NCBI GenBank assembly: GCA_964652515.1
Contig: CAZZAK010000001.1
Coordinates: forward strand, 1-35,131
Direction of reading: 5' to 3'
Source: an uncultured Clostridium sp.
GTDB lineage: Bacteria > Bacillota_I > Bacilli_A > RF39 > UBA660
Length of the DNA: 35,131 nt
The notes below the pieces were generated by a model. It saw only the letters and a list, made by a program, of their open reading frames with translations. It was not told the DNA's origin and ran no database searches. A program made the translations under genes and the position numbers. This document shows, in pieces, positions 2,300 through 21,900 of the stretch; the first letter of the stretch is position 1, and every line of letters begins with the position of its first letter.

Positions 2300-2329
2300 T
2301 TGACAAAATGTGTTTATAAAATATATAAT
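2300..2329 (+). promoter_or_regulatory. Candidate sigma-A promoter for 2348-3202
   Basis: TTGACA (2300-2305), 18-nt spacer, TATAAT (2324-2329). The leader would be very short, since RBS GGGTG lies at 2336-2340. Confidence 0.4.
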
Positions 2330-2347
2330 TGATATTGGGTGTTTTAG

Positions 2348-3202: not shown

Positions 3203-3272
3203 TGGGTAAAAATGCTTTTTTATTTTACAATATAGATAAAATACTATATAATTTATATGAGAGGTGATAATT

Positions 3273-5865: not shown

Positions 5866-6792
5866 ATGCAAAAAGATTTCAAAACTATTGACCAACAGAT
5901 AGATATATTAAAGAATAAAGGGTTAATAATTGATGATTATGACAAAGCTAGTGAAATACTTTTGAAGGAAAATTACTTTTTCATTAATGGTTATAGATAT
6001 TTGTTTATGAATTCAAATGATGATAGATCATTTATTAGGGGTACTACTTTTAATGAACTATATTCTTTGTTTTTATTTGATAGATATATTAGAAATATAT
6101 TGTTTAAGAATTTGCTTATATTTGAAAACAATTTTAAATCAGTTATTTCTTATCAATTGTCTAAGAAGTATGGTTATAAGGAAAAAGATTATTTGAATGT
6201 TAAAAACTTTACTGGGGATCCTTCTAAGAAGAGAAGAGTAAAAGATGTTATTGAAAAGATGAAAAGACAAATTAGAATTAATGTATCTAGACATTCTGCT
6301 ACATTACATTATTCTAGAAGTTATGGGTATATTCCGTTATGGATTTTGGTTAAAGTTCTGTCATTTGGCTTGATGTGTGAGTTATTTTCTATATTAAAAA
6401 ATCAAGATAAGGATGAAGTATCATCAGTATTCCATTTGACGATTGAAGAACTTGAAAATTTCTTACCAATATTATCTAATTATCGTAATTTATGTGCTCA
6501 TGAAGATATTGTTTTTGATCATAAAACTGAAAAATACATTGTTGATACAGAATATCACGAGAAACTTAAGATATTTAAAATGGATGATGAGTATATTTAT
6601 GGTAAGAATGATTTGTTTGCGGTTGTTATAATATTTAAGTATCTTCTTACAGATAGTGACTTTAGATTGTTTATGAAGGAATTTGAGTATGAGATTGAGG
6701 CTATGGATGGAAGAATAGAGGCTATTCCAAATAGTAAGATATTAGATCATATGGGATTTCCTAAAAATTATATGGATATTGTAGATTTATAG
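5866..6792 (+). CDS. Abi_2 family (AbiD/AbiF-like) abortive-infection protein
   Basis: The N-terminus KTIDQQIDILKNKGLIIDDYDKASEILLKENYFFINGYRYLF and the segment LSNYRNLCAHED are the hallmark segments of Abi-like (Abi_2) proteins. A possible extended -10, TGATATACT, lies at 5841-5849. Confidence 0.75.
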   Translation: MQKDFKTIDQQIDILKNKGLIIDDYDKASEILLKENYFFINGYRYLFMNSNDDRSFIRGTTFNELYSLFLFDRYIRNILFKNLLIFENNFKSVISYQLSKKYGYKEKDYLNVKNFTGDPSKKRRVKDVIEKMKRQIRINVSRHSATLHYSRSYGYIPLWILVKVLSFGLMCELFSILKNQDKDEVSSVFHLTIEELENFLPILSNYRNLCAHEDIVFDHKTEKYIVDTEYHEKLKIFKMDDEYIYGKNDLFAVVIIFKYLLTDSDFRLFMKEFEYEIEAMDGRIEAIPNSKILDHMGFPKNYMDIVDL

Positions 6793-6802: not shown

Positions 6803-7897
6803 ATGAAAAATAAAAATAATTTGGGAGTGGTAATAATTGTTTCAATATTATTATCATTTGTTTGTGGGGTAATTGGTGCTTATTTGGTTGTTAATTCAAT
6901 GTCTACTAGCAACAAGGTTATAAAAAACATAACTACTTCTGAACTTGTAGAAAATAGTATAGCTAGTTCTGTGGATAATGTATACGGGGCTACTGTTGCT
7001 GTTATGTCTTATAATAATGATAATTTGAAGTCTACTGGTACGGGTTTTCTTTATAAGAAGGATTCAAATAAATACTATATTATGACAAATTATCATGTGA
7101 TTGATGGAGCTGATAAAGTTAAAGTATCTTTTAATGATAGTGATGAAAAAATAGATGCTACTATTTTAGGAGGGGAAGCTTATTCTGATATTGCTGTATT
7201 AACAATTAGTTCAAAAGATGATCATTTGGTTGTGGAAATTGGTGATAGTGAATCTATTAGACTTGGCGATACGATCTTTACTGTGGGTAATCCTATGGGT
7301 ATTGAATATAAGGGAACTGTTACTAAGGGGATACTATCAGGTAAGGAAAGATTAGTAGAAGTTAGTTTATCAGGTTCTGTATCTGACTATTATATGAAAG
7401 TATTGCAAATAGATGCGGCAGTTAATCCTGGCAATTCAGGTGGACCATTATGTGATGTTAGCGGTAAGGTTATTGGTATAATATCACTTAAGATTGTACA
7501 AGATTCTATTGAGGGAATGGGATTTGCTATTCCTATTGAAGATGCATTATCTTATGTTTCTAAAATAGAAAAAGGTGAAAAAATAGTTAGACCTTTTGTT
7601 GGCGTTAGTATGTTAGATTTATCTGATGAATATAATTTATGGAGATATCGTATAACATTACCAGATGATGTTAATGATGGCGTTGCTGTTTTAGAAGTTT
7701 CTTCTGATAGTCCTGCAGCAAAAGCTGGACTTAAGAAGGGTGATATAATTGTTAAAATCAATGATAATAAAGTTTCATCGATAGCTGAATTTAGATATGA
7801 ATTATATAAACATGAAGTAGGAGAAAAGATAGAATTAACAATATATCGTGATAATAAGAAACAAAAATTAACTGTTACTCTTGGTAAGAGTGAATAG
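6803..7897 (+). CDS. htrA: HtrA/DegP-family membrane-anchored serine protease with C-terminal PDZ domain
   Basis: N-terminal TM helix. Catalytic triad contexts are TNYHVI (His), SDIAVL (Asp) and GNSGGPL (Ser). PDZ-like segment: GVAVLEVSSDSPAAKAGLKKGDIIVKIN. Only 10 nt separate it from the abi gene, with RBS GAGGTGA. Confidence 0.9.
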   Translation: MKNKNNLGVVIIVSILLSFVCGVIGAYLVVNSMSTSNKVIKNITTSELVENSIASSVDNVYGATVAVMSYNNDNLKSTGTGFLYKKDSNKYYIMTNYHVIDGADKVKVSFNDSDEKIDATILGGEAYSDIAVLTISSKDDHLVVEIGDSESIRLGDTIFTVGNPMGIEYKGTVTKGILSGKERLVEVSLSGSVSDYYMKVLQIDAAVNPGNSGGPLCDVSGKVIGIISLKIVQDSIEGMGFAIPIEDALSYVSKIEKGEKIVRPFVGVSMLDLSDEYNLWRYRITLPDDVNDGVAVLEVSSDSPAAKAGLKKGDIIVKINDNKVSSIAEFRYELYKHEVGEKIELTIYRDNKKQKLTVTLGKSE

Positions 7898-7923
7898 CAC
7901 TAATTAAAATAGTGCTTTTTCTT
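7896..7923 (+). terminator. Rho-independent terminator after htrA
   Basis: AGCACTA (7896-7902), loop ATTAAAA, TAGTGCT (7910-7916), then a T-run. Confidence 0.6.
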
Positions 7924-8005
7924 TGAAAAAAATATAATAAATAACTTTCAAAAATTGACATATTATGATAAAATGATTATGTATATAGTAGAAGGAGAGA
8001 TGTAT

Positions 8006-8539
8006 ATGAAAAAAATTGGGAGTTTTATTTGGAATATAATTGTTATTGCTTGGCTTATAGTGGCGATTTTTGTCACAGTTTGTCTTCTTTCTTATAATGA
8101 TTATAGAGTTATTAAATTTGGTAATAGTTCTTTACTTATTATGGATAGTGATGAATTAGAACCAGATTTTCATGAAGGAGATTTATTAATTGTAAAGCGT
8201 AACAGTAATAAGATGATTAATGTTAATGATAAGGTATTTTATTATAATACTGCTAAAGATAGTAATACTTTAATATATACAGGTACTGTTAATGGTAAGA
8301 GGGAAATTACTAAATCAGAAACAACCTTTGATGTTGATGGACAAAAGGTGTCTTCTGAACATGTTATTGGTAAGTTTGATACTGCTAAAGTATTTCATAA
8401 TTTTGGTACTATTCTTGGAGTATTTACTTCTAAATGGGGATTTATGTTTTTAGTTATATTCCCTACATTGTTTGCTATTATTTATGAAATAATAGCTATA
8501 TTTGATGCTATAAAAGAATCAAAAAGAGAAAACGCTTAA
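8006..8539 (+). CDS. SipW-like signal peptidase paralog lacking all catalytic residues (pseudo-peptidase), two terminal TM helices
   Basis: The topology and the ELEPDFHEGDLLIVK segment align with SGSMEPxFxxGDxxxVK of SipW-type peptidases, but the nucleophile Ser is Glu. THR(I/V) is replaced by YTG, and the GDNN box is absent. The ATG at 8006 follows GAAGGAGAG. The longer ORF-track start at 7955 is the TTG of a TTGACA box. Confidence 0.6.
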   Translation: MKKIGSFIWNIIVIAWLIVAIFVTVCLLSYNDYRVIKFGNSSLLIMDSDELEPDFHEGDLLIVKRNSNKMINVNDKVFYYNTAKDSNTLIYTGTVNGKREITKSETTFDVDGQKVSSEHVIGKFDTAKVFHNFGTILGVFTSKWGFMFLVIFPTLFAIIYEIIAIFDAIKESKRENA

Positions 8540-8540
8540 T

Positions 8541-9095
8541 ATGAAGAAAAGATTAATTATAATATCTTTAATTATTTTGTTAGTTACATCAGTTGTTTTG
8601 ATGGATACATATGCGTTGTTTGAGACAAATGCTAATGCTACGAAGGAACTTACCAAAGGTAAGTGGATAATTGAAATTAATGGAGAAGATATTACAGAAA
8701 CTGAGACTATTACGCTAGATGATTTTGTATATGATAATTCAATTCATACACAAGATGGTTATTTTGCTCCAGGAAGTGATGTATATTTTGATATAGAAGT
8801 AGATACATCAGAGTCTGATGTTTCTGTTATATATGAAATAGATATTGATGATAGTGCTTTGGATGATCATCCTAATATATCTTTTAGTGTAGAGAATTTA
8901 AATACTTTAGAAGAAGTAGATGAATTTCCAATGACAGATACGATTCTTTTAAGTGACAATGATAGAACTATTACTTTAAGAATTCATTTGACATGGGAAG
9001 ATGATGAAGATTATGACCAGGATGATACTTTATTAATTGATGGAGAATTAGCGTTTACAATTACTGCTAATTTTAAGCAGTATTTAGGTTTATAA
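8541..9095 (+). CDS. Exported protein with SipW-cognate signal peptide, TasA/camelysin-superfamily-like (putative fibre/matrix subunit)
   Basis: MKKR + hydrophobic core + DTYALFETNANAT (cf. the GTxAxF motif of TasA/camelysin signals). C-terminal W-acidic loop (RIHLTWEDDEDYDQDD) and terminal strand FTITANFKQ. Confidence 0.6.
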   Translation: MKKRLIIISLIILLVTSVVLMDTYALFETNANATKELTKGKWIIEINGEDITETETITLDDFVYDNSIHTQDGYFAPGSDVYFDIEVDTSESDVSVIYEIDIDDSALDDHPNISFSVENLNTLEEVDEFPMTDTILLSDNDRTITLRIHLTWEDDEDYDQDDTLLIDGELAFTITANFKQYLGL

Positions 9096-9121
9096 AAAAG
9101 AATAAGAAGGGAAGGTGCATA

Positions 9122-9928
9122 GTGATAGCTTTTAAGAAAATTGCTAAGTGGATAATGAATGTTTTTACAATTATCTTGCTTATAATACTATCTTTAGTAA
9201 TTTATGGAAAAGCTACTACTGTTTCTAAGGGTAGTTATCCAAATTACTTTGGATATACTTTTTTTGAAGTAGCTAGTGGCTCTATGGAACCTACTCTTCA
9301 TATTAATGATGTTATATTGGTAAAAATAACAAAAGAAAATTTAAAAAAAGGTGACATTATTGCTTTTCATCAGGATGATGCTATTATTACTCATAGAATT
9401 GTTTATATTGATGGAGAAGTGTTAACAGTAAAAGGTGATAACAATAATACGATTGATAATCCTATAGTGGTCAATGATGTTATAGGTAAAATAGTTAAGA
9501 TATATCCTGAATTAGGAATATGGAAGAAAGTTTTGAAAGAACCTAAAATACTAGCTTTAATTTTTGTCACGATGTTACTTTTTGATTTTGCTTTATCATA
9601 TGATGGTAAGAAAGACAAGAAAGTAAAAGAAAAGAAAGAAGAAATAAAAGAAGTTGTTTCTTATGAAGTACCTAAGAAAAAGGAAAATCATGAGAGTGAA
9701 GAATTACTTTCTTTAACTAGAAAGATTGATGTTTCTGAAATTAATAAATTACTTGAGGAAAGTAATGATAAAGAAACTAAAAAAGAAGTAGAAAAAGTTA
9801 AGACTGAGATGGTTAAGGAGGAAAATATTTTTCCAGAAGAACCTAAGAAAAAGGAAAAAAATATAGATTATACTGTTCGTTTGGACTTAAATGAGATTCA
9901 TAAAAAGGTTGACGAACGAATGAGGTGA
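9122..9928 (+). CDS. sipW: Signal peptidase I, SipW (archaeal/ER) type, with a long Lys/Glu-rich C-terminal extension
   Basis: VASGSMEPTLHINDVILVK (Ser box), IITHRIV (His box), VKGDNN. A C-terminal TM helix is followed by about 100 aa of a KE-rich tail. GTG start after GGGAAGGTG. Confidence 0.8.
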   Translation: MIAFKKIAKWIMNVFTIILLIILSLVIYGKATTVSKGSYPNYFGYTFFEVASGSMEPTLHINDVILVKITKENLKKGDIIAFHQDDAIITHRIVYIDGEVLTVKGDNNNTIDNPIVVNDVIGKIVKIYPELGIWKKVLKEPKILALIFVTMLLFDFALSYDGKKDKKVKEKKEEIKEVVSYEVPKKKENHESEELLSLTRKIDVSEINKLLEESNDKETKKEVEKVKTEMVKEENIFPEEPKKKEKNIDYTVRLDLNEIHKKVDERMR

Positions 9929-9933
9929 AAATA

Positions 9934-10530
9934 ATGAAAGGAATTAGAAAGATATTTTTAAATATTAATTATAAAAAATTAACAAAATATTTGTTTCTTT
10001 CTTTCCTTTTGTTAATAACATTAATTTTATTTGGAACATTTGATTTTACTCAAGCTAGATATGAGAGTGAAGTAGAAGTATCAGGTGGTCCTACATTGGC
10101 TTTCTTTATTGTAGATGTTACCACTCAGAGTGGTCATATTAAGTTAGATGAAATGATACCTAGAACTGAACCTTATACTTATACTTTTAATGTGTCTAAT
10201 TTTAATAATCAAAAGAGAGCTAATGTTGATTTAACTTATACGATAGAAGTTATTACTACTACTAATATGCCATTAAATTTTCAAATATTTAAGGGTAATG
10301 ATATGAATACTATGCAAGTAGATCATGATACTACTACTACAGATGAAAATGGAGTATATTATAGACATTTAGTAATTGATGATGCTTCAATAATGACATA
10401 TAGTGCTAATCATACTGATACATATACTTTATGGGTTGAGTTTCCTTTGGAAAATAAGGATTATCCTGATAAATATGAAGGTATTATTGATTTAGTAGAT
10501 ATAAAAATAGTAGCTGAGCAGGTAGTTTAA
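9934..10530 (+). CDS. Exported protein with SipW-cognate-like signal peptide, TasA-superfamily-like
   Basis: The ATG at 9934 lies 5 nt after GAGGTGA (the GTG at 9925 lies within the RBS). Hydrophobic core + GTFDFTQARYESE. DTYTLWVEFPLENKDYPD, and terminal strand DIKIVAEQ. Confidence 0.55.
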   Translation: MKGIRKIFLNINYKKLTKYLFLSFLLLITLILFGTFDFTQARYESEVEVSGGPTLAFFIVDVTTQSGHIKLDEMIPRTEPYTYTFNVSNFNNQKRANVDLTYTIEVITTTNMPLNFQIFKGNDMNTMQVDHDTTTTDENGVYYRHLVIDDASIMTYSANHTDTYTLWVEFPLENKDYPDKYEGIIDLVDIKIVAEQVV

Positions 10531-10531
10531 T

Positions 10532-11452
10532 ATGAAAAAGAAAATAAAGTATAAAAAAATTATTATATTGATTATGGCAATATTATTCTTAATATTTGTT
10601 GGGCCTATTTTGGCTAAGTTTGTAACTGATACGTATCATAGTTACTATCTTAGTTCTAAACATTTTTATTTTACTAGTAATAGATTAAAAAAGAACAATC
10701 CTACTTATTTAGTTAATAATTGGTCTGGTGTTGGATCTTTTAATATTGATGTAGGACTTAGTTCTATGAAAAACAGTTTGGTTTATTCAGATTATGATAT
10801 TCCTTATACTATAAGATGTGTTTGCCCTACTGGTGTAACATGTAGTTTTGATAAGACAAGTAGTACTATCTATGGTGCTGATCCTAATCATGCTGATTCT
10901 GTGGTATTATCAGTTAATCCTGGTAGAACATATTCGGAAAACGAGAGGTTATCTATTTATATTGAAGCTTCTAGTACAGCTCCTTATGTGGAAACTATTG
11001 GTGCTTATTTTGAATATGTTGTTGGTAAGCAAGGTGTTACTTATGAGATAGAGGATGAAGCTAATAGGCCTTATTTGATATTAAAAATTACTAGTGCTAT
11101 AAATTTCTGTAAGGTTACTAGTGCTTTTCTAACTTATCAAGTAAATGATATAATTAGTAGTAATACTTATGTTACTTTGTCTCCGGAAAATAAATTGAAA
11201 TGCGCTAGTAAAAAAATTGATTTGAGTTTTAATCCTAGTGTTATATTGTTGGATACTACAAGTAATATTGTTGATGTGAGTACTTATACTACACAAACTA
11301 TATCTTCTGTTGATTATATTAATAGTCTTTCTTTTGGAATTGGTCCTGTTAGTACAATGGCTATTAAATTTTATAAGGTGAATGTTAGTAATAATTATAC
11401 TTATCCATACGAAAATAGCAGTAGTGTTGTTACAGTTAATGTTCATGATTAA
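10532..11452 (+). CDS. Exported or membrane-anchored protein of unknown function (6 Cys), part of the SipW/TasA-like operon
   Basis: MKKKIKYKK + hydrophobic core + ILAKFVTDTYHSYY. Starts 1 nt after the upstream stop. No recognisable enzymatic motif. Confidence 0.5.
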   Translation: MKKKIKYKKIIILIMAILFLIFVGPILAKFVTDTYHSYYLSSKHFYFTSNRLKKNNPTYLVNNWSGVGSFNIDVGLSSMKNSLVYSDYDIPYTIRCVCPTGVTCSFDKTSSTIYGADPNHADSVVLSVNPGRTYSENERLSIYIEASSTAPYVETIGAYFEYVVGKQGVTYEIEDEANRPYLILKITSAINFCKVTSAFLTYQVNDIISSNTYVTLSPENKLKCASKKIDLSFNPSVILLDTTSNIVDVSTYTTQTISSVDYINSLSFGIGPVSTMAIKFYKVNVSNNYTYPYENSSSVVTVNVHD

Positions 11453-11465
11453 TTGAGGTGATTTT

Positions 11466-12443
11466 ATGGACTACAATATTGTTGATAAATATATTAATTT
11501 TATTAGAGAATCTTATATGGATTTATGTAAGATAGTATTTAAAAGTAATTGTAAGAAGGAATTATGTTTAGCTTTTATAGAGAAATATATTACTGTTAGA
11601 TATTATAATGAAACTAATTATCCTGGGGAAAAAGATTTTATTAATAGAATTAATAAAGAATTATTAGATTTATTAGATAAATTGGTACTTGATGATAATT
11701 TAGATGATCTTAAAAATATTGTAGCTTTGTTTGGATATATATTCTATTTTGATGATGTTTGCGTTATGACTAGGGAGATGGAAGTTATAGATGCAATTAT
11801 TAATGATGGTATTATTAAAATATCTAATAGTGATAATATGCATGAGGAACTTAAGAGTTGGTATCTTAGTTATAATTTAAATAAAGAGAGATTTCATGAT
11901 GCAATTAATACTAAGAAATTTAATTTAGTAGAAGAAAAAATACATCATAGATTATATAGTTTAGTATTAGAACATAGTGTTAGAATATCTAATTTATATA
12001 GTGAATATGCTATTGATAAGGCTTATAATAGTGGAGTAGTTAATGAAGATAAGTTGTTTGTTACTTATATATTGGCTTCTAATACGGTTTTAAGTAATGC
12101 TATTAATTTAGATTTTTCTAAGTATTATCTTGTTTCTTTAGCTAGTACTTTATTTACTAAAGAGAAGAAGATTAGTAGATTACTTAATGTTATAGATAAT
12201 CCTTTATCTAAGAAGTTTATTCATATTAAGGTTACTTATACTGATTATAAGGAAAATAAAAATATGATAGATAAACTTATTAATTCTGGATATTCATTTA
12301 TTATGGAATTAGATTCTAAGTATTCAGGAGATAGCAATATGTTGTATTTATTTCCATATATAATGGTACAAAAGGATAGCCCTGAATATGAAATGTTAAT
12401 GAGAGATAAAGATTATCTTAAATCTAAGATTATTAAGTTTTAG
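11466..12443 (+). CDS. Cytoplasmic protein of unknown function; first gene of the McrB-like cassette
   Basis: RBS GAGGTGA. No TM helix or signal peptide. The C-terminal half (IHIKVTYTD...GYSFIMELDSKYSGDS...LFPYIMVQKD) could be read as a degenerate EAL-type barrel or as D...(D/E)xK. The ambiguity is unresolved. Confidence 0.5.
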   Translation: MDYNIVDKYINFIRESYMDLCKIVFKSNCKKELCLAFIEKYITVRYYNETNYPGEKDFINRINKELLDLLDKLVLDDNLDDLKNIVALFGYIFYFDDVCVMTREMEVIDAIINDGIIKISNSDNMHEELKSWYLSYNLNKERFHDAINTKKFNLVEEKIHHRLYSLVLEHSVRISNLYSEYAIDKAYNSGVVNEDKLFVTYILASNTVLSNAINLDFSKYYLVSLASTLFTKEKKISRLLNVIDNPLSKKFIHIKVTYTDYKENKNMIDKLINSGYSFIMELDSKYSGDSNMLYLFPYIMVQKDSPEYEMLMRDKDYLKSKIIKF

Positions 12444-12452
12444 GAGGTAAAA

Positions 12453-13976
12453 ATGGATACATTTTTAAGGTTTTTATATGAATTTTTATCACAATTTTTT
12501 AATGGTCTTAAATATATGGTATTAGGTATATTCAACGGTTTTAAAAGTATATTTAATTTACCTGAATATGTAAAAGTTATTAATGAATATAAAAATGATT
12601 TTTCTATTCCTGAATGGTTACTTGTAGCGGTGGTTATTTTAGTTACTTTGGCTTTACTTGCTTTGATTATATTTATGGTATATTTCTTAATTAGAAAGTA
12701 TATTAGAATAAGGAAGTCTTTAGTGGAACAAGAATCTTTGCTTGAAGAGGTTAGTACTTTAAATAACGAAGTAGCTAAATTAGTAAAAGAAAAAGAAACT
12801 ATTTTGGCTATGAAGGTATCTAAGCTAGGACTTAAGCCTGATGAATCTGATGTAGAAGAGGGCGGTGGGGAATCTGATAATGTAGATCCTAATACAGAAA
12901 TTAGATTTCCTAAATTATATGAAGTTGATAATAAATTTAAGGATTATAAGGTAGCTAATTATGGTAATACATTTGAATTACCTGAATTAGTAGAGTTATT
13001 TAGAAATTTTGCTGCTAGTCATTTAAGATTATATTATACTACAGATATGATTAGATTATTTATATCAGCATTAGCTTCAACAAAACTTGTAATTTTACAA
13101 GGTATATCTGGTACAGGTAAGACATCTTTGGCTTATGCTTGGGGAAAATTTTTGAAACATGACTCTTGTATTGCTTCAGTACAACCATCTTGGCGTGATA
13201 GAACAGAGTTATTTGGATATTTTAACGAATTTACTAAACGTTTTAATGAGACAGAAGTGTTAAAAGAAATGTATGTTGCTGGATATACTGATGATGTATA
13301 TACAGTAATACTAGATGAAATGAATATCTCTCGTGTGGAATATTATTTTGCAGAAATGTTATCTATACTAGAGATGCCTAATAAAGATGAATGGATAGTA
13401 GAAATAGTACCTAGTGCTTGGAAGAGTGACCCAGTTCATTTAATGGAAGGTAAATTAAAGATACCTCCTAATATGTGGTATATTGGTACGATCAATAATG
13501 ATGACTCAACGTTTATGGTTACTGATAAGGTTTATGACCGTGCTATGCCTATTGATATTAATGATAAAGGTCAAGTTTTTGAACCTGAAGATATTCCTGC
13601 ACAGGATATTAATTATTCATATTTGGATAAGAAGTTCCAAGATGCTATTAGTAATAATCCTATTCATGAAGATAATTTGAAAAAGATTGAAGCTATGGAT
13701 GATTATGTTATTCAACATTTTAGAATAGCTTTTGGTAACAGAATTGTTGCCCACATGAGAAAATTTGTTCCTGTATTTGTAGCATGTGGGGGAGATGAAA
13801 TTAGGGGTATTGATTACTTTATAGCTCGTAAGATATTAAGAAAATTTGAACAATTAAATATTGCTTATATAAGAGATGAAATTGATGGATTTGTTAAGTT
13901 CTTGAATGATAATTTTGGTGAAAACAAGATGAGTGAATGTATTGAATATCTATTGAGACTTAAGAAAATGGCGTAG
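12453..13976 (+). CDS. Membrane-anchored McrB-like AAA+ GTPase (N-terminal TM helix + coiled coil + McrB-type AAA+ core)
   Basis: RBS AGGAGGT. TM helix WLLVAVVILVTLALLALIIFMVYFLI followed by RKYIRIRK. Walker A LQGISGTGKTS. Walker B and following helix VILDEMNISRVEYYFAEMLSILE (McrB-type DExN...E). NMWYIGTINNDDST matches the McrB NxxD (MNTAD) segment. Confidence 0.7.
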   Translation: MDTFLRFLYEFLSQFFNGLKYMVLGIFNGFKSIFNLPEYVKVINEYKNDFSIPEWLLVAVVILVTLALLALIIFMVYFLIRKYIRIRKSLVEQESLLEEVSTLNNEVAKLVKEKETILAMKVSKLGLKPDESDVEEGGGESDNVDPNTEIRFPKLYEVDNKFKDYKVANYGNTFELPELVELFRNFAASHLRLYYTTDMIRLFISALASTKLVILQGISGTGKTSLAYAWGKFLKHDSCIASVQPSWRDRTELFGYFNEFTKRFNETEVLKEMYVAGYTDDVYTVILDEMNISRVEYYFAEMLSILEMPNKDEWIVEIVPSAWKSDPVHLMEGKLKIPPNMWYIGTINNDDSTFMVTDKVYDRAMPIDINDKGQVFEPEDIPAQDINYSYLDKKFQDAISNNPIHEDNLKKIEAMDDYVIQHFRIAFGNRIVAHMRKFVPVFVACGGDEIRGIDYFIARKILRKFEQLNIAYIRDEIDGFVKFLNDNFGENKMSECIEYLLRLKKMA

Positions 13977-13983
13977 GTGAGTT

Positions 13984-15093
13984 ATGGATAAATTAAAAGT
14001 GGTTGACTTATATGAGAAAGCTAATGAGACTAAGGGTGTAAAATTTAATAATAATATTCGTTCTAATTTAACTGTTAGTACAGATATGAAGAGAGTAGAA
14101 GTAGATTTTGAATGGTTAGATTTAATGGAGGATACTATTAAGTACTTAGATAATATTTTAAGAAATCCTAACAGATTTATTGTTAACGAAGAAGAGATTG
14201 TTAAGGTGGAACTTGCTAGAAGAATAACGGTAGAGAGTATTAGACATTTATCTAAGCATACTAACTATATTCAAAAGATAGAGGATAATGGTGATGTTAA
14301 ACCTTCTAAAATACTTAATATTCAAAAAGATGAGAGTTATGATACATATGAAAATAGGCTTATTTATACTTTAATTGAGAATATGCGTAATTTTTTAGAA
14401 TTAAAGAAAAAAAGTTTGGTTACTTCTGCTAGTTTAAAAGATGTTAAGAAAGCTAAATATAGTGCTAAAAGTATGGTTGGTAAAGAGCAAGTGTTTTTAG
14501 AAATGAATTATACTTCTAGTTTGATGGATAAAAAAGAACCTAAAGGTGAAATTCCTTTAGCTGATAGATTACAAAGACTTGATGATGATATTACAATGTT
14601 AACCAATACGGATGTATATAAGACATTAAAAAAATTACATGTTGCTAGAGTTATCCCTCCGATTAAGAAAACAAATGTAATTTTGAAAAATACAAACTTT
14701 CAGTATGCTATGAAGTTGTGGGATTATTTGCAGGAACATGTTGCTAATGATACAAAAGTTGTTAAGAGTAATCGTAAGTATGAAGAAAGTGGTGTATTGA
14801 AAGAGTATATGGATAATACTTTCTTATTAGATTTTTTGGCAATGGATACTTTATCAGAGGTTGATAGTAAAGAGAAAGAAATGGAAGTTATTGAAGAAAT
14901 TACTGATAACTTACTTCAAAGAATAGTGGAGCTTAATGTTGATATGCCGCTTACTACTTTGAAAGAAAAAATTGGAGATAAGATAGCTATTATTAAGTAT
15001 CGTAAGGAAGCTAGTTTGGCTGAGATACAAAATACTTTTTCTAAGGCTATTAAGGATTATTTAGAAGATATAGAAAATTTAAAATTAGGGTGA
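13984..15093 (+). CDS. McrC / DUF2357-like N-terminal domain protein without a recognisable PD-(D/E)xK nuclease
   Basis: RBS AGGTGA, 7 nt after the McrB-like stop. SYDTYENRLIYTLIENM resembles the conserved DTxxNRxIKxxL segment of the McrC N-terminal domain. The C-terminal half is acidic and helical and has no hydrophobic-strand D...(D/E)xK motif. Confidence 0.5.
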   Translation: MDKLKVVDLYEKANETKGVKFNNNIRSNLTVSTDMKRVEVDFEWLDLMEDTIKYLDNILRNPNRFIVNEEEIVKVELARRITVESIRHLSKHTNYIQKIEDNGDVKPSKILNIQKDESYDTYENRLIYTLIENMRNFLELKKKSLVTSASLKDVKKAKYSAKSMVGKEQVFLEMNYTSSLMDKKEPKGEIPLADRLQRLDDDITMLTNTDVYKTLKKLHVARVIPPIKKTNVILKNTNFQYAMKLWDYLQEHVANDTKVVKSNRKYEESGVLKEYMDNTFLLDFLAMDTLSEVDSKEKEMEVIEEITDNLLQRIVELNVDMPLTTLKEKIGDKIAIIKYRKEASLAEIQNTFSKAIKDYLEDIENLKLG

Positions 15094-15097
15094 TGAT

Positions 15098-15649
15098 ATG
15101 AAAATACTTTATAAGATTATTAAAGGGATTATTACTGTGTTTTTATTAATAGTATTATCTTTAGTTATATTTCAAAAAGTTACTAATAATAAAATAGTAG
15201 TTGGTAATGTATATGTTTTTCAGGTTGCTTCTGGGTCTATGAAGCCTTATTATAAAATAGGTGATATTGTAGTAGTTAAAAAAACAGATGCTTCTTCTTT
15301 AAAAGTTGGCGATGATGTTACTTACTTGGGGCGCGAGAGTAATTTAAATGGCCTTGTTATTACACATAGAATTATTTCTATTAGAGATGATAATGGTAAA
15401 CTTTATTTTACTACTAAAGGTACTGCTAATGATGTAGAAGATCCTGAAATTACTATTGATGATATATATGGTAAAGTTATGTATAAGACTATTTTATTTA
15501 GTTTTGTTGGTAGGCTTATGACTAATATTACTGTTTATTATTTATTGTTTGTATCAGTGGGAGTGGCTTTTGCTTATGAAGTCATTACAGCATTTTTTAT
15601 AAAGGATGATGATAGTGATGATAAAGAAAAGGAAGAAGATAAAGTTTAA
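15098..15649 (+). CDS. sipW: Signal peptidase I, SipW (archaeal/ER) type
   Basis: VASGSMKPYYKIGDIVVVKK (Ser box), VITHRII (His box), TKGTANDVED. N- and C-terminal TM helices and an acidic tail. Confidence 0.8.
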   Translation: MKILYKIIKGIITVFLLIVLSLVIFQKVTNNKIVVGNVYVFQVASGSMKPYYKIGDIVVVKKTDASSLKVGDDVTYLGRESNLNGLVITHRIISIRDDNGKLYFTTKGTANDVEDPEITIDDIYGKVMYKTILFSFVGRLMTNITVYYLLFVSVGVAFAYEVITAFFIKDDDSDDKEKEEDKV

Positions 15650-16247
15650 AATATCAAGAATAATTTTTTTGATAGTTTTAATTGCTTCGAATACTTTTGC
15701 GTGGTTTATATATGCCAGTAAGGTAGATAGTGATGTATCTGTTCATATTAGAGCTTGGAATGTTGTGTTTGAGGGTGGAGATACGCAGACTTCTAGTATG
15801 ATTAACTTTGATGTTGATAGTGTTTATCCTGGTATGGAGGATTATTCATCTGATATTACGGCTTATAACTATAGTGAAGTATCTGCTAGTATGACTTTTT
15901 ACTTATTGGAAGCAAGAATACTTGGCGATACTTATGTTACTGAAGAAGGTAGGGCAGAAAGGGGCGAAACTCCTTTAGCAACAGATTTAACTAGTGCTGA
16001 ATTAATAGAACAGTTAGAAGAAGACTATCCTTTTACAATATCTTTTAATACTTCTAGTGCTACTATTGACTCTGTTGATGGCGAGGAAACTTTCACTCTA
16101 TCAGTAGTGTGGCCTTATGAGAGTAATAATGATGAATTAGATACAGAATGGGGAATAGCTGCTAATACATATAAAGAAAGCAATCCTAATAGTTCTAGCA
16201 TTGCTTTAAAAGTTAAAATTACAATTATTCAAAATAATCCTAGCTAG
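15606..16247 (+). CDS. Exported protein with SipW-cognate signal peptide, TasA-superfamily-like
   Basis: KKRKKIKFK + hydrophobic core + SNTFAWFIYASKVDSD. FTLSVVWPYESNNDELD, and terminal strand KVKITIIQ. The start is ambiguous (ATG 15606/15609, GTG 15615, ATG 15618). Every option overlaps the sipW 3' end by at least 32 nt. Confidence 0.6.
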   Translation: MMIVMIKKRKKIKFKISRIIFLIVLIASNTFAWFIYASKVDSDVSVHIRAWNVVFEGGDTQTSSMINFDVDSVYPGMEDYSSDITAYNYSEVSASMTFYLLEARILGDTYVTEEGRAERGETPLATDLTSAELIEQLEEDYPFTISFNTSSATIDSVDGEETFTLSVVWPYESNNDELDTEWGIAANTYKESNPNSSSIALKVKITIIQNNPS

Positions 16248-16264
16248 CTTTGACTAGCTTTTTG
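16242..16264 (+). terminator. Candidate terminator hairpin at the convergent gene junction
   Basis: AGCTAG (16242-16247), loop CTTTGA, CTAGCT (16254-16259), TTTTG. It lies within the 3' coding end of the minus-strand gene. Confidence 0.4.
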
Positions 16265-16843
16265 AATGAAGTTAATATTGACATCTACGCTGGCTATACC
16301 GTTCGCACTAGCTTCAGTATCGTCAGCGTTATCTAATTCTTCTCCTGTTCCATCGAACCATTCAATGTAGATACGATATGTTTCTGTTCTGGTTTGTTCT
16401 TCTAAGAGATGTGTTGCTGTTATTACTGTATCATTTGTGAAGGAAACAATGGGATCATTGTTTTTTTTGTATCCAGTGAATTTTATATCGGATACAGTAT
16501 TATCATTACTTAGTGATAAGGTTATTGTTTCATCAAATGATACTCCTACATCAGAATAATCTATTGTAATATCAAAGTATCCTGTGCTTGTTGGAGCTAT
16601 TACGCCACTGGCTATATTAGTGTTTGTATCATATACGGGGGTAATAGTGGTAGAAAAATCGCTATCATCTAATACATCCTGAGTATTAACAAGAAATGCC
16701 CATCTAGCGATAGTGAGGTCGCTAGTAGCATCAGCACTAGATATATATTTAGCATAAGTATCTTCAATCATATCTATAAGCAATATTAGAGAAATAAAAG
16801 CAATTATTAATCTTAATTTTCTGTTAGCTAGCAGCTTATTCAC
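16244..16843 (-). CDS. Exported protein with SipW-cognate signal peptide, TasA-superfamily-like (convergent paralog)
   Basis: GTG start 5 nt after AAGGAGGG. Hydrophobic core + EDTYAKYISSADATSD. APTSTGYFDITIDYSDVGVSF parallels APGSDVYFDIEVDTSESDVSV of 8541-9095. YRIYIEWFDGTGEELDNADD, and terminal strand VNINFIQ. Confidence 0.6.
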   Translation of the reverse strand: MNKLLANRKLRLIIAFISLILLIDMIEDTYAKYISSADATSDLTIARWAFLVNTQDVLDDSDFSTTITPVYDTNTNIASGVIAPTSTGYFDITIDYSDVGVSFDETITLSLSNDNTVSDIKFTGYKKNNDPIVSFTNDTVITATHLLEEQTRTETYRIYIEWFDGTGEELDNADDTEASANGIASVDVNINFIQKASQS

Positions 16844-16923
16844 ACTATCCCTCCTTTACTATATATAATAATTTTATCAAAAAAAATATGATTGGTATTT
16901 AATTTGAATATTAAAAAAAATAT

Positions 16924-16941
16924 TTGACAAATAGTTGACAA
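16924..16941. promoter_or_regulatory. Tandem TTGACAA boxes spaced 11 bp apart (candidate regulator site)
   Basis: TTGACAAATAGTTGACAA. Neither box has a properly spaced -10 on the plus strand. The site lies in the divergent control region 16844-17056. Confidence 0.3.
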
Positions 16942-16970
16942 TCAAGGAAATATAAAAATTATTCAAAAAA

Positions 16971-17013
16971 TATATATTTTCGTATTGCAATTTTTGTCAA
17001 AATAAGTTATCAT
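16971..17013. promoter_or_regulatory. Back-to-back divergent sigma-A-type promoters
   Basis: Plus strand: TTGCAA (16985-16990), 17 nt, TATCAT (17008-17013), serving 17057. Minus strand: TTGACA (rc of 16995-17000), 18 nt, TATATA (rc of 16971-16976), serving 16843. Confidence 0.4.
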
Positions 17014-17056
17014 ATATTTATATGATAGGGTATCATATTTATTATGGTGATTGTTT

Positions 17057-17770
17057 ATGGCTAGAGAAGTTATTGTAACTGCTGATAAAGTAAAGAATCG
17101 TAAGAAGCGAAGTAAAATTGTAAGAAGAGCTTTATTGATATTATTATTCTTTTTGATAGTACTGTATATTATATTGGATATTATATATAGTGAAGGAAGG
17201 TTTACTGTTACTTTGGATTCTAATAGAACTTTGGAAAGTGGGTTGGCAATATTTGATAGTCTAAATAATAGCCATGGTAAAAGGAAACTTGAGGCTACTC
17301 CAATAAAGTTTATGGATAATATTTCTTATAAATGGATACCGGATGGTGTTGATAAGGAAGCAGACGGCCCACATAATGGACAAAATTACATTGCTTATAG
17401 TTTTTATGTAGAAAATCAAGGTGAGCGGGTTCTTAATTATCACTATGAGGTTATTGTGGATGATATTATTAAGAATGTTGATAATGCTATTAGGATAAGA
17501 ATTTATCGTAATGGAGAATATACTACATATGCTAAGCGTGATACTATGTTTGATACTATAGAAAAAAATACTGTTCCATTTAAGGAAATAAAAGAATCTG
17601 AAGGAACTATCATTTTGGAGAAAGTTGCTAATTTTAGACCTGATGACTTAGACAGATATACTGTGTTGGTATGGTTAGAAGGCGATGATCCTGATTGTAC
17701 TGATGCTTTATTAGGTGGCGAAATTAAAATGCATATGGTAATAACCGAAGAACATATTGAACAAGGTTAG
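17057..17770 (+). CDS. Single-pass membrane protein (N-in) with an extracytoplasmic domain sharing the W-x-E-G-x-D-x-D-C motif with the downstream gene
   Basis: ATG at 17057 after GGTGA. KNRKKRSKIVRR + TM helix ALLILLFFLIVLYIILDII. YTVLVWLEGDDPDCTDALLGGEIKMHMVI parallels MRIYMWIEGQDLDCENNASGTDITFKLELS of 17782-18903. Confidence 0.55.
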   Translation: MAREVIVTADKVKNRKKRSKIVRRALLILLFFLIVLYIILDIIYSEGRFTVTLDSNRTLESGLAIFDSLNNSHGKRKLEATPIKFMDNISYKWIPDGVDKEADGPHNGQNYIAYSFYVENQGERVLNYHYEVIVDDIIKNVDNAIRIRIYRNGEYTTYAKRDTMFDTIEKNTVPFKEIKESEGTIILEKVANFRPDDLDRYTVLVWLEGDDPDCTDALLGGEIKMHMVITEEHIEQG

Positions 17771-17781
17771 GAGTGAAATTA

Positions 17782-18903
17782 ATGAAAAATAAAAGGGAAG
17801 AAAAAAGAAATAAGAAAGTTAGAACGCTGATATTATTATTGTTTTTGACAATTATAATGTTTGGTACATCAACTTATGCATGGTTTACTGCCAATAGAGT
17901 AGTTACTATCGAAGCTATTGATGTAAGAGTTGAAACTAGTGATGGTTTGCAGATATCTACTAATGGTAGTACATGGAAATCTATTATTACAAAGGATGAA
18001 ATATTAGCTGGTTATACTGGTCATAATAATTTTGTACCTGATGTATTAGATGCTGTATCTACTAGTGGTAATGCTCCAATTGCTAGTGGTAAGAGACTTA
18101 TGGATATGTATGGCAGTACTATTGAATCTGAAGTTGGAGTTAATGATGGTAAATATACTATCTATACTACTAAGATTGATGAGACTGCTGCACAAAAGAA
18201 ATTTATTGCATTTGATATTTTCTTAAAAGTAAGTAGTAATAAGACTGTTTATATTAATAGTGATGCTGGTTCATATTCAGAAGTTATTAAAAGATCTGGT
18301 GATACTTATGCGGATCGTGGATTAAAGAATGCTGCTAGAATTGCTTTTGTTCCTACTGGTGAAGCTGCAGCTGAGGCTTCTATTGCTAATATTACTGGTG
18401 CTATATATACTACTGGTGATCCTGATAATCCTGTTCCTAGTGTTAAAATATGGGAACCTAATAATGATACTCACTCAACTGCTGTTGTAAATAGCGTTGC
18501 TACTGAATATGGTTATACTGGTGTTACTGCTACAGGAAGTACACCAATTCAATATTATGGTATTAAGGATGCTATCCCTTCTACCAATAAAACAGATTTA
18601 ATTAATACTGTAAAGGGTACTGTTACTTCATATAATGATGGTACTGATGATATTACTTTCTCAGAGGCTGTTACTACTGGTACTGTTACTGACTCTACTG
18701 ATTATTCTACAGCTGGTATATTGTTATCTACTCCTGCTACTTTAGCTAGTGGTAAGAATTATAAAGCTTTTGATTTAAAAGCTGGTATTACTAAGATGCG
18801 TATATATATGTGGATTGAAGGACAAGATCTTGACTGTGAAAATAATGCTTCTGGTACTGATATTACATTTAAACTTGAATTAAGTATTAGAGGAAATACG
18901 TAG
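17782..18903 (+). CDS. Thr/Gly/Ala-rich exported protein with SipW-cognate signal peptide; candidate major fibre subunit
   Basis: The ATG at 17782 lies 8 nt after AGGAG (the GTG at 17773 overlaps the RBS). KNKREEKRNKK + hydrophobic core + GTSTYAWFTANR. Composition and codon choice (gct/ggt/act/gtt) look like a highly expressed structural protein. A strong terminator follows directly. Confidence 0.6.
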   Translation: MKNKREEKRNKKVRTLILLLFLTIIMFGTSTYAWFTANRVVTIEAIDVRVETSDGLQISTNGSTWKSIITKDEILAGYTGHNNFVPDVLDAVSTSGNAPIASGKRLMDMYGSTIESEVGVNDGKYTIYTTKIDETAAQKKFIAFDIFLKVSSNKTVYINSDAGSYSEVIKRSGDTYADRGLKNAARIAFVPTGEAAAEASIANITGAIYTTGDPDNPVPSVKIWEPNNDTHSTAVVNSVATEYGYTGVTATGSTPIQYYGIKDAIPSTNKTDLINTVKGTVTSYNDGTDDITFSEAVTTGTVTDSTDYSTAGILLSTPATLASGKNYKAFDLKAGITKMRIYMWIEGQDLDCENNASGTDITFKLELSIRGNT

Positions 18904-18911
18904 GAATAATT

Positions 18912-18939
18912 AAGAAGATAAATATATCTTCTTTTTTTA
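18912..18939 (+). terminator. Rho-independent terminator
   Basis: AAGAAGATA (18912-18920), loop AATA, TATCTTCTT (18925-18933), then a T-run. Confidence 0.65.
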
Positions 18940-18968
18940 TTGCTTTACTTTATTTTTACGACAAAATA

Positions 18969-18977
18969 TGCTAAAAT
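18969..18977 (+). promoter_or_regulatory. Extended -10 promoter element for the giant gene
   Basis: TGCTAAAAT lies about 20 nt upstream of RBS GGAGAG and the ATG at 18999. No good -35 box is present. Confidence 0.4.
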
Positions 18978-18998
18978 TAATAATAGGAGAGTAGGATT

Positions 18999-21900
18999 AT
19001 GTTGCAGTTAAAAGAATGGATTTATAAACATAAAATAATTCTTATTTTAGCAGTTATACTTACTGTTCTTTTGTCATGGAATTTTATTCATTCTTTTAGT
19101 GAAACTGTATCTGATAATTCGTGGGATGGAGTAGTTGCTACTGAATTTTCTTCTGGTAATGGTACAAGAGATAATCCATATGTTATAACTAGTGCTTCTG
19201 AATATGGGTATTTTAAAGAATTACTTGAGGGTAGTGATGCTTCTTTATATTTAGATAAATATTATGTTATTACTGATAGTTTTAATTATGGTAACTATAG
19301 TATATCTATTAATAATATTCTACCTTTTACTGGTACTTTGGATGGTACTGGTCATAGTATATATGGTGCTACTTTAAATAATTCGTTATTTAATGAATTA
19401 GATGGTGCTACTATTAAAAATATTAAGTATAGTTTAAATATTACAAGTGATAAGACTTCTGGTATTTTATCTAATAGCATTAATGATACGAAATTATCTT
19501 ATTTTATCTTGGATGGTTCTATTAATGGGAATAATTCTGATATTACTGTATCTGGTATAGGTAATACTATTAGTAATTCAGAAATTGAAAACATTGTTAT
19601 AAATGTTGATGCTAATTCTTCTAATTATGTGTCTATTTCTAATAATATTAGTTCTACTACTATTAATAATGTGTTAGTAAGAACTGGTTATAATCATTTA
19701 TCTTTTGATAGTGAATATGAAGTGGATGAATTTTCTATTAATAATGGAAATGTTATTGTTTCTGGTTTAGATAAGTATGCTAGTGAAGATTATAAAATAG
19801 TTATTAATAATAATAGTTTTTATGTTTCTTCAAGTGAAATTGTTCTAGAACCTGAAAATGAATCGGGGTTATCTAAGAATTTAACTTCTCTAAAAGGATT
19901 AAGAAGTGCTTCGATAACAGTACATGATTCAGGGATTGTAACTGCTGATCATGCTATTTATATTAACGATCTAACAAGTGATTATAATTATTATATGGGT
20001 CTTAATTATACTAAAATTACTAATACTAATGGTACTATTCCTACAGGTACTAATCAAAATTTATATAGTAATTCTAATTTGGCTACTGTATATATTAGGT
20101 ATAGTAGTGCTGATATTAATGATTCTAGTATGTATGGATCTGTTAGTGTTTCAGAGGATATTAGGGATTATTATTACTATAAGAGATATCCTGTGGTAAA
20201 TGGTTATATTACTTTTGATTTGATTGATAGTCCTTGGGCAAATAGACCTACTGATATGGCATTTAATGGATGGGTAACTGATTATGATGGTGCTACTATT
20301 TCTTTGGATATGGACACTTATGTTAGAAGTGTTAAGATACCTGTATCTGATATAAGTAATCCTATTTCTATTACATTCTATTCTAGTTGGACTATAGCAT
20401 CTGTAGTTACTACAACTACTTTTACTAATTTGAAAAGTGTTGGTATGAATGCTCTTACACCTTCTTATGGTGATTTAACTATTTATTATGTAACAGCTAG
20501 AGTTAATAATAATAGTAATTATCCTAATAGTAATGATTTGTATGATTTAAATGGTAATCATATAACAAGTGGTAGTAGATGTAGAACGTCTGGTGGTTGT
20601 ACTTATTTAACTAGAAATACTAATAATACATATAATGCTAATACTAGTTATTATAGTGTTACTCCTAATGGTAATGGACCTGCTACTGTTACTAGAGTAT
20701 ATCCTCAGCAAAAACCAATTCCATATTATGATGGAGGTAGTGCTGCTGGATACTTTATTAGAGTTACTAGTGGTACTGAAAATATATATTCTTCTACTGG
20801 TGTTAAACAGGATAGTTGTAGTGGGACATGTTATAAATTGCTTCAATACAGTGATGGAAATATAACTAGTGGTACAACGTATTATTATTTAACGACTAGA
20901 GATACTAATATTTTTGCTCCTACTAGTACTAATAATATTACTGCAAATAATATATCTTCTACTAAACCTATGACAATTACTGGTATTCATAATGGAACTG
21001 ATAATAGTAATAGTCGTACTCTTAGAATGACTGATGATTGGGAAATAGCTGCTGATATTAGAATAGAATTTATTCGCTTTTATGTTAGTGATACTACTAC
21101 TAATGTTTCGGAATTTGATTCTGATGGCTATGAAATAATTGGTAATTTTAAAAATGTTAAATTAGGTAGAGGTTTAAAAAGAAATGGTAGTAATTTAACG
21201 GCTAATAGTTTTGTTGGCGGCTCATCAAGTTCTGCTACTACTCTTTCTAAGTATACGTTTATCGTAGAATCTGGCTTTTATCAAACTGGTAGTGCTGTTG
21301 GTTATGGTAGTGCTGTTACACACAGAGTACTTGCTAATGTAATTTTAGGTAGTGATTATGATAGAATAAGTAGTAATGGTAATAACAATTTAATTGTTTA
21401 TTATGCTTATGCTGGTTCTTGGGGTTCTAATTTATATAATAGTTCAAATAGTTCTAATTCTTATGATACTCCAGCAATTTATACTGTTGTCAAAAGTGGT
21501 TCTTTTGGGACAAATAAGGCTGATTATGCTGCTGGTATTTATGTTGGTGGACGTTCTAGAGGTACACACTATTCTTTACGTGAAGCTTTAGTCGAGGGTG
21601 GGTACATATATAATTTGATTGGTGGACCTTCTTCTGATGATGGCAGAGCTTCTAAAAATGATATTATTATTAATGTCAAAGGTGGAGAAATTGACTTAGT
21701 CTTTGGTGGTGCTGGTGCTTCTGATACTGTGGGTAATAAGATATTAAATATTACTGGTGGTACGATTAACTATAGTATTGTTGGTGGTTCTAATGCGGCA
21801 GAGTATAGCTCTAGTACAAGTAATCCAAATGGTAAGATTGATGGCGATACTTTACTATATGTAGGTGGTAATGTTACTGTTGGTACTAAAAATGATAAAT

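Follow-up and report, generated by a model that had tools for sequence, protein, structure and literature searches.

What does a bacterium build when signal peptidases, a series of small exported proteins and a GTPase of the kind found in McrBC are encoded side by side? We addressed this question in a 35,131-nucleotide stretch of DNA from an uncultured Clostridium sp. (contig CAZZAK010000001.1; hereafter the window; G+C of ~27%), in which positions 7955–27812 hold 14 tightly spaced genes, labelled here, in order from 8006 to 27812, as S1, T1, S2, T2, E, F, G, H, S3, T3, T4, L, M and N. These make up one locus of about 14 genes, in two operons, at 8006–27812, perhaps ending at 29459. A first-pass annotation had described 8006–18903 as an unusually elaborate SipW/TasA-superfamily locus with three signal peptidases and six or seven paralogous exported subunits. 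That stretch is the exported-protein and peptidase portion of the larger locus, and F, the McrB-like G and the McrC-like H (11466–15093), which lie inside it, had been overlooked. We find that the locus is an expanded variant of the CoCoPALM class, that it is real, widespread and named but uncharacterised, and that it probably builds a cell-surface fibre.

A membrane-anchored GTPase module assigns the locus to the CoCoPALM class

CoCoPALM was named by Bell et al. (2024) in one paragraph, which suggested pilus assembly, listed no components, reported no experiment and deferred the subject to a future paper; the class was described there as an McrB-like GTPase fused to an FtsB-like transmembrane (TM) and coiled-coil segment, together with an McrC homolog that 'usually' also carries a coiled coil, and signal-peptidase genes (PMC11090510). 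Judged from sequence comparison, the locus has a GTPase with an NxD signature (G), an adjacent DUF2357 homolog (H) and genes of the signal-peptidase family, and G also carries a TM segment with a putative coiled coil.

G (12453–13976) comprises a conserved 54-residue N-terminus, a TM segment (residues ~55–82; Kyte–Doolittle window 48–87) followed by a basic RKYIRIRK stretch, a putative coiled coil (~85–125) and a McrB-type GTPase domain. The heptad-rich stretch after the TM segment matches designed coiled coils (E = 6.7e-5), and the sole Pfam match related to an FtsB-like segment was a weak one to FtsL_2 (E = 0.07). The GTPase domain aligns with Escherichia coli McrB across Walker A (GISGTGKT), Walker B (ILDEMN) and the sensor region. 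Across 18 relatives of 31–100% identity, N348 and D350 were invariant and position 351 was D, E or Q, which is the NxD signature that defines the CoCoNuT-related branch of McrB GTPases (Bell et al., PMC11090510). Searches of Pfam and NCBIfam found no nucleic-acid-binding domain on G, the N-terminus being given over to the TM segment and coiled coil.

The neighbouring H (13984–15093; 369 residues) carries an N-terminal PF09823/DUF2357 domain (44 bits against a cut-off of 23.3), the N-terminal domain of McrC. Pfam, NCBIfam, PADLOC and PDB profile searches returned no nuclease match for H, although a divergent nuclease fold is possible. The H-like proteins of three other loci (L018, L020 and L021) are far longer, at 623–790 residues, and the coiled-coil Pfam families FBF1, Cor1 and PKK each matched one member of a mixed set that included these long proteins. 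F (11466–12443; 325 residues) is a cytoplasmic protein of the expanded architecture only, for which no relatives of known function were detected; a degenerate EAL domain was considered for it and found no support in a Pfam scan of its orthologs. The locus is organised around this membrane-anchored McrB/McrC-type GTPase module, its most conserved part, and it is the module that assigns it to the CoCoPALM class rather than to the tapA-sipW-tasA type of operon.

Synteny and GTPase conservation argue against a role in defence

The order S1-T1-S2-T2-E-F-G-H-S3-T3-T4-L-M, with T4 reversed and N as an optional last gene, was kept in 14 species-level metagenome-assembled genomes from rumen and gut, which their submitters labelled Erysipelotrichaceae, Bacilli, Bacillales, Bacillota, Tenericutes, Clostridia or Clostridium. 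Between species, G was the most conserved product (77–93% identity; mean column identity 87%), against 63–85% for L, 63–83% for H and 43–59% for T1. When the window was compared with one of its two closest relatives (L004), G was 93% identical, TrpS 75% and HtrA 68%. The flanking order trpS-yqeG-yqeH-Abi_2-htrA was shared by the two closest species only and is therefore little informative.

We next scanned metagenomes and recovered 80 loci whose G is 51–93% identical to that of the window, assigning genes with hidden Markov models (HMMs) of the window families. What recurred among them was a core made up of the peptidases, M/L, the GTPase and its partner, in many cases with a giant protein behind it, and three architectures were resolved: A, which is window-like; B, with the order M T2 E S1 S2 G H S3 T3 T4; and C, a minimal form with the order (M) L M S G H M (M) S. 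Within the 29 metagenomic loci that extend at least 5 kb either side of G, H was present in 28, at least one SipW-like gene in all 29 and at least two in 22, M in 26 and L in 22. Two more distant loci (G 44–50% identical) have M-like neighbours starting GTSTFAWFSMN, an L-like protein in one of the two, a longer H and, in both, two active-type peptidases with charged cytoplasmic tails. One minimal system (L, M, S, G, H, S; locus L021) is flanked by GGDEF and EAL genes (485–3098 and 11446–14295), which hints at control by cyclic di-GMP. The system occurs in rumen, human-gut and sludge metagenomes, and the G family comprises more than 8000 clusters at 90% identity; among 50%-identity clusters, 8296 representatives matched at E ≤ 1e-3 and 757 at E ≤ 1e-30.

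The McrBC kinship of G and H raises the alternative that the locus is an anti-phage defence system, a membrane-associated sensor and effector akin to CoCoNuT that uses its exported proteins as surface sensors or decoys. The GTPase of G belongs to the NxD clade common to CoCoNuTs and matches the PADLOC candidate PDC-M26A at 1.4e-33, and an Abi_2 gene lies upstream of the locus and NERD and integrase genes downstream. Set against this are the lack of a detectable nuclease on H and of a nucleic-acid-binding domain on G, the absence of any PADLOC match for F or H, and a gene order fixed across 14 species with G more conserved than TrpS, unlike fast-turnover defence islands; two to three peptidases with five to seven secreted proteins are also without precedent in defence systems. 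With no nuclease detected, synteny fixed and G so highly conserved, a defensive function is very improbable. The related proposal that G and H are an inserted defence island was likewise rejected, since they rank as the best-conserved genes and are always found together with the peptidases.

Two active-type peptidases and a conserved pseudo-peptidase

The three SipW/archaeal-type peptidase homologs, S1 (8006–8539; 177 residues from the ATG at 8006), S2 (9122–9928) and S3 (15098–15649), are mutually similar by BLASTP, and simple hydropathy analysis gave each an N-terminal and a C-terminal TM segment. Against TIGR02228, the model for archaeal and endoplasmic reticulum (ER)-type signal peptidase I (S26B; curated cut-off 51.85 bits), S2 scored 81.3 bits and S3 87.5 bits, whereas S1 fell below the cut-off at 29.6 bits. 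All three stayed under the 190-bit cut-off of NF046067, the equivalog model for Bacillus subtilis SipW (42, 76 and 64 bits for S1, S2 and S3), and are thus relatives of SipW rather than orthologs.

The SxSMxP serine (SGSMEP in S2) and the histidine of the THR motif were kept in all S2 and S3 orthologs in alignments from 15 genomes, and both residues were kept in 44 of 46 S2-type and 43 of 49 S3-type proteins at metagenomic loci. On this sequence evidence, both S2 and S3 count as genuine signal peptidases I of the archaeal/ER type. In S1, by contrast, the serine is replaced by Glu, Ala or other residues and the histidine is lost in 15 of 15 orthologs; the catalytic residues are likewise lost in about 20 further metagenomic loci, where those positions drift freely, and S1 identity between species is 45–66%. 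The absence of both residues from every ortholog marks S1 as a conserved pseudo-peptidase, so that the three signal peptidases claimed in the first-pass annotation prove to be three homologs, of which two are active-type enzymes and one, as read from its catalytic positions, a pseudo-enzyme.

Beyond its C-terminal TM segment, S2 bears a K/E-rich tail of about 100 residues that is predicted to be cytoplasmic (residues 165–268; window 9614–9925); the C-terminal tail of S3 is shorter and acidic. Long K/E-rich peptidase tails were also seen at L020 (2579–3490 and 7254–7907) and L021 (5364–6113 and 10351–11157).

Several exported proteins share a TasA-type junction more than a common ancestry

Simple hydropathy analysis gave T1–T4, E, L, M and N a single N-terminal hydrophobic segment each, one TM segment in G, and none in F or H. 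The earlier annotation had pointed to five N-terminal strings as SipW-type junctions (DTYALFET, GTFDFTQA, NTFAWFIY, DTYAKYIS and STYAWFTA), to six strings combining a late strand with an acidic loop and to four C-terminal strands of the form hxhxhxQ; all of these are present. Across orthologs the junction takes the form T-(Y/F/L)-A-x-(F/Y). It was kept in 15 of 15 orthologs of T1 (8541–9095; 184 residues; DTYA↓LFET, the arrow marking the predicted cut), in 12 of 12 of T3 (15618–16247; 209 residues; NTFA↓WFIY) and in 11 of 11 of T4 (16244–16843; 199 residues; DTYA↓KYIS), and in the universal, often multicopy M (17782–18903; 373 residues; STYA↓WFTAN) the residues T34, Y35, A36, W37 and F38 were invariant in 47 M-family sequences. 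E (10532–11452; 306 residues; ILAKFV in the window copy), which the annotation had passed over, has T(L/F)A↓K(Y/F)(V/I) at this place in the majority of the 15 sequences aligned, some of them varying from it. The claim did not hold for T2 (9934–10530; 198 residues; C-terminus IKIVAEQ), in which GTFDF is not conserved among orthologs and FTQARYE is conserved in its place. No T-aromatic-A motif appeared in the ortholog alignment of L (17057–17770; 237 residues), a universal core protein with a basic cytoplasmic N-tail and a TM segment, which looks like a bitopic, N-in membrane anchor.

The mature TasA protein in PDB 8AUR, to which the TasA sequence used here is 100% identical, begins AFND; TasA is therefore cut at GTWA↓AFND, the same junction form as in the locus proteins. 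A strict regular-expression enrichment test was too crude, recovering only two of the genes, and the junction claim consequently rests on ortholog conservation. TIGR04088, the model for SipW-cognate signal peptides, matched no window product but did match 12 of 47 M-family members weakly (best E = 0.0044), and in JGI annotation a SipW-like signal peptide is named for some M orthologs. The earlier view that SipW-type peptidases lie beside several exported proteins with a TasA-form junction was thus borne out, and a TasA-type signal at the locus is probable.

Kinship among the exported proteins proved narrower than the six or seven paralogs that had been proposed. T1 and T4 are clear paralogs (31% identity, 4e-15 by BLASTP; 99% by hhalign of ortholog alignments), whereas profile–profile comparison found T3 and M to be related in their N-terminal 50 residues (95%), and L and M in a C-terminal module with W-x-E-G-x-D-x-(D/E)-C in common (E = 5e-5). 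T2 and E found no significant partner among the locus families by BLASTP or profile–profile comparison, and when profiles of mature domains were compared among families, the M–L pair alone was significant. The L and M modules (window 17700–17750, VWLEGDDPDC in L, and 18810–18860) read W-x-E-G-(D/Q)-D-x-(D/E)-C, with an invariant cysteine and an acidic cluster; the motif could bind a metal (calcium) or form a contact between subunits.

Mature domains show no significant similarity to TasA

In an alternative that has no motor, paralogs of the TasA superfamily would be cut by the SipW paralogs and self-assemble extracellularly by donor-strand exchange, as TasA fibres do with SipW as peptidase (PMC9674648), giving one heteropolymeric fibre or several fibres, and G, H and F would be unrelated passengers or regulators. 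Several observations favour it besides the shared junction. The T1 family aligned collinearly, end to end, with full-length TasA by hhalign (P = 0.003), with three elements paired: the junction, the next-to-last strand together with its acidic loop, and the last strand, which ends in Q (FKQ in T1). The T1 AlphaFold model (pLDDT 77) is a beta-sandwich with a low-confidence, disordered segment just past the junction, a segment that is of low confidence in the M model as well, and it matched the donor-strand pilin FimG weakly (E = 4.7e-3). Operons that combine several TasA/BsaA paralogs with a signal peptidase are also known (PMC11580942).

The mature domains themselves gave a different result. 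Once signal peptides were removed, the T1-family profile was not significantly similar to mature TasA (P = 0.6). Peptidase_M73 (PF12389; IPR022121) matched none of T1–T4, E, L and M at E ≤ 0.1; neither this family nor any other in Pfam matched 63 orthologs and relatives of F, E, L, T2 and T3 at E ≤ 0.05; and no Pfam domain was found on 56 T1 homologs or among the 120 M homologs listed, the database holding at least 1901 M homologs. The NCBIfam models for SipW-associated exported proteins showed no similarity to window products, and sequence and profile searches of Pfam, NCBIfam, PADLOC and PDB gave no informative match for T1, M, F or, its DUF2357 domain aside, H.

Fold comparison, which covered the T1 and M models, agreed. 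Foldseek against PDB returned nothing at E ≤ 1e-3 for either, and TasA was absent among the 50 matches listed. For T1 the best match had E = 1.9e-3, and matches were generic beta-sandwiches (carbohydrate-binding modules and GOLD domains) in addition to FimG. The M model, although confident (pLDDT 86; predicted template modelling score 0.84), found nothing better than E = 0.29 in PDB and nothing among viral structures (BFVD). Membership of the mature domains in the TasA/camelysin superfamily, as claimed in the first-pass annotation, is therefore not supported: the absence of HMM matches, the absence of a fold match for T1 and M and the P value of 0.6 speak against it. For the two modelled proteins, this is the outcome that the first-pass annotation had itself named as refuting its reading. 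G and H, moreover, are among the most conserved genes and occur together with peptidases and M/L in 28–29 of 29 loci, so they are not passengers. A self-assembling TasA-type fibre thus appears unlikely as the product of the locus, though a good deal less so than a defence system.

A giant protein belongs to the system

The adjacent giant putative adhesin singled out in the earlier annotation is N (18999–27812; 2937 residues), which has an N-terminal hydrophobic segment and no Pfam or NCBIfam match across its length; by eye, its central part contains many repeats of the YGGGN/YGGSN type. We found that N is part of the system. A giant open reading frame (ORF), usually 11–120 bp past the last system gene, was found in all three architectures and was homologous to N in A and B; ORFs of at least 1000 residues were present in 29 of 80 loci, most of them cut by a contig end. 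Several of the giant proteins open with the same class of junction (PTLARYKN, SVSAWVET and KTYSWLYE).

These observations also suit the alternative that the locus is an apparatus for exporting, anchoring or displaying N, with the small proteins as a wall stalk, conduit or membrane platform and G and H energising or gating the handling of the giant protein. It gains from the placement of the giant ORF directly after the system in every architecture, from the shared junction class and from loci L018/L019 (967–14806), where a 46%-identical G relative and a 790-residue H-like partner lie amid LRR_5 proteins of 2750 and 290 residues and no signal peptidase, M or L gene was found near the pair. The GTPase pair may accordingly be linked to giant surface proteins more generally. 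Yet many loci of sufficient length show no giant gene within 10 kb, multiple M paralogs and a membrane-anchored L look more like polymer subunits, and no homology to a known secretion component was found. We regard dedicated handling of N as improbable, somewhat more so than the motor-less TasA-type fibre.

A model for GTPase-coupled assembly of a surface fibre

By analogy with characterised fibre systems, we favour assembly of a multi-subunit surface fibre coupled to a nucleoside triphosphatase (NTPase) as the function of the locus, with a probability of about 0.55. The fibre proposed in the first-pass annotation thus stands as the most plausible product; what has changed is the kind of locus, a GTPase-centred CoCoPALM rather than a tapA-sipW-tasA-type operon.

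What the analysis shows is homology, the state of catalytic residues, the conservation of motifs, topology, synteny and co-occurrence; how precursors are cut and polymerised, how the parts couple physically and what GTP does are inferred. G, an NxD GTPase of McrB type and presumably a hexamer, would be tethered beneath the membrane by its single TM helix and coiled coil, and H, an McrC N-terminal domain with no nuclease, would plug the G ring and stimulate it. S2 and S3 would cut precursors after the conserved T-aromatic-A junction, while the dead S1 would cut nothing but would bind precursors or scaffold the complex. With their charged cytoplasmic tails, the peptidases may touch, and could dock onto, the coiled coil of G. 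Released subunits would then assemble on uncleaved, membrane-anchored L into a surface fibre, with M as the universal subunit, T1/T4, T3 and E as lineage-specific accessory subunits and possibly T2 as another, its junction not being conserved. The fibre would carry or display N, and GTP hydrolysis would drive or gate assembly.

A bolder version of this model, which we advance tentatively and consider clearly less probable, would make CoCoPALM an unrecognised NTPase-driven surface-filament machine of monoderms, in which a membrane-tethered, McrBC-derived GTPase ring mechanically extracts and polymerises subunits that have a novel fold and are processed by the SipW-type peptidases, with L as the base, S1 as the precursor receptor and the giant adhesin as the tip. 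It is possible, and in our estimate just as speculative, that such a machine would be a functional analogue of type IV pili made from wholly non-homologous parts.

Several points weigh against GTPase-coupled fibre assembly. Fibre formation by CoCoPALM is argued by analogy and its carriers are uncultured, and a full-text literature search found no later work on CoCoPALM and no experimental study. The established SipW/TasA fibres are not known to need an NTPase, nor are McrBC relatives known to act on proteins. Significant similarity to known pilins, to TasA, to AbpA or to the thread subunit of Sulfolobus was found for no subunit, whether in sequence or, for T1 and M, in fold. The hydrophobic region of M (window 17782–17890) is nearly invariant: L19, L21, L23, I27 and M29 are identical in 47 sequences and five further positions are at least 90% conserved, although column identity in the family averages 48%. 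A signal peptide that is merely discarded would not usually be so constant; the machine may recognise the helix, or the helix may be retained. H of the window is short, with no obvious long coiled coil and no match to a coiled-coil family. Finally, the L018/L019 loci, which lack peptidases, indicate that the GTPase pair is not strictly tied to SipW-type processing.

Comparison with known systems

As in B. subtilis tapA-sipW-tasA and Bacillus cereus sipW-tasA-calY, an ER/archaeal-type peptidase lies beside exported substrates here, and the T-aromatic-A↓x-F junction recalls TasA, as do, in T1, a late strand, an acidic loop and a last strand that terminates in Q. The locus departs from these operons in having no HMM or fold match to TasA/Peptidase_M73 and in peptidases that score 64–76 bits (S2 and S3) against the 190-bit SipW cut-off; TasA systems, for their part, have one peptidase and no pseudo-peptidase, NTPase or giant protein. 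The elaboration that struck the earlier annotation as unusual has a precedent, since multi-paralog TasA/BsaA operons with a signal peptidase have been noted before and heteropolymer assembly from paralogs has been proposed (PMC11580942). Clostridium perfringens sipW-bsaA-bsaB-bsaC combines several TasA-like paralogs with a large accessory protein, and its matrix proteins are reported to need type IV pilus genes, which specify an NTPase-driven machine, for efficient secretion (PMC7395162; PMC11580942). In that species the machine stands apart from the operon as a canonical type IV pilus system, whereas here a McrBC-type GTPase is encoded within the locus.

With McrBC and CoCoNuT the locus shares a G core that aligns to McrB, the DUF2357 domain of McrC in H and the NxD signature of CoCoNuT; it differs in having no detected DNA- or RNA-binding domain or nuclease, in the membrane anchoring of G and in its secretory genomic partners. 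Type IV pili, archaella and type II secretion offer a functional analogy only, each bringing together, in one locus, a dedicated membrane peptidase, pilin-like paralogs whose N-terminal hydrophobic segments are conserved, and a cytoplasmic hexameric NTPase. There is no homology to them: the peptidases of the locus are Ser/His enzymes of S26B type rather than aspartic prepilin peptidases, and the junction follows the hydrophobic segment instead of preceding it. AbpA, CanA cannulae and Sulfolobus threads are beta-rich donor-strand fibres, some with calcium sites, and by analogy a comparable part could fall to the acidic loops in T1, T4, M and L; these archaeal fibres show no sequence similarity to the locus proteins, and the AbpA and Sulfolobus thread subunit structures (7UEG and 7PNB) matched the M model only at E > 3.

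New to the class here are the M/L core with its TasA-type junction, the recurrent giant protein, the three architectures, the dead S1 and, as accessory families, T1/T4, T2, T3, E and F.

Transcription-unit signals and flanking genes

The first operon begins at a terminator-like hairpin (7896–7916, plus strand) that lies 3' of an htrA-like gene and 5' of S1. T4 is the sole minus-strand gene of the locus, in an inverted orientation that is conserved, and a second hairpin (16242–16259) between the convergent T3 and T4 is terminator-like on either strand. Downstream of N, a 506-residue ORF (27939–29459, plus strand) matches no Pfam family. In locus L014, which is rearranged, a homolog is found flanked by M and S1 (2861–4312), a placement that suggests that the gene may belong to the system.

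Further out, the Abi_2 (abortive-infection-like) gene (5866–6792) lies between yqeH and the htrA-like gene, upstream of the locus, and is 75% identical in the two closest species (L004 and L005). On the other side, the product of 30896–31705 (plus strand) has NERD and Top1-type zinc-ribbon domains and has an apparent paralog, by eye, at 33556–34305 (minus strand). Because these two genes flank a tyrosine integrase (32329–33435, minus strand), the segment probably represents a small element, mobile or defensive, that has no connection with the locus. A sigma-70-family factor with regions 2 and 4 (1561–2259, minus strand) looks, by eye, like the sporulation-type factors, and the sporulation capacity of these small-genome Bacilli bears on an earlier suggestion that the locus might specify a spore appendage.

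Implications

If the proposed function is correct, the motor of a restriction enzyme, McrBC, would have been recruited to build or operate a cell-surface structure, and bacteria without an outer membrane would have a new solution to filament assembly. The system is abundant, as the size of the G family attests, yet it has received one paragraph in the literature. Our analysis supplies a parts list for it, with G, H, two peptidases, M and L as the core and frequently a giant protein, alongside a pseudo-peptidase and an M subunit of no known fold. Loci of this kind should be annotated neither as 'TasA/SipW biofilm operon' nor as 'McrBC restriction system'. For the ecology of gut and rumen, the finding points to what may be a major adhesion or surface organelle of small-genome, uncultured Bacilli.

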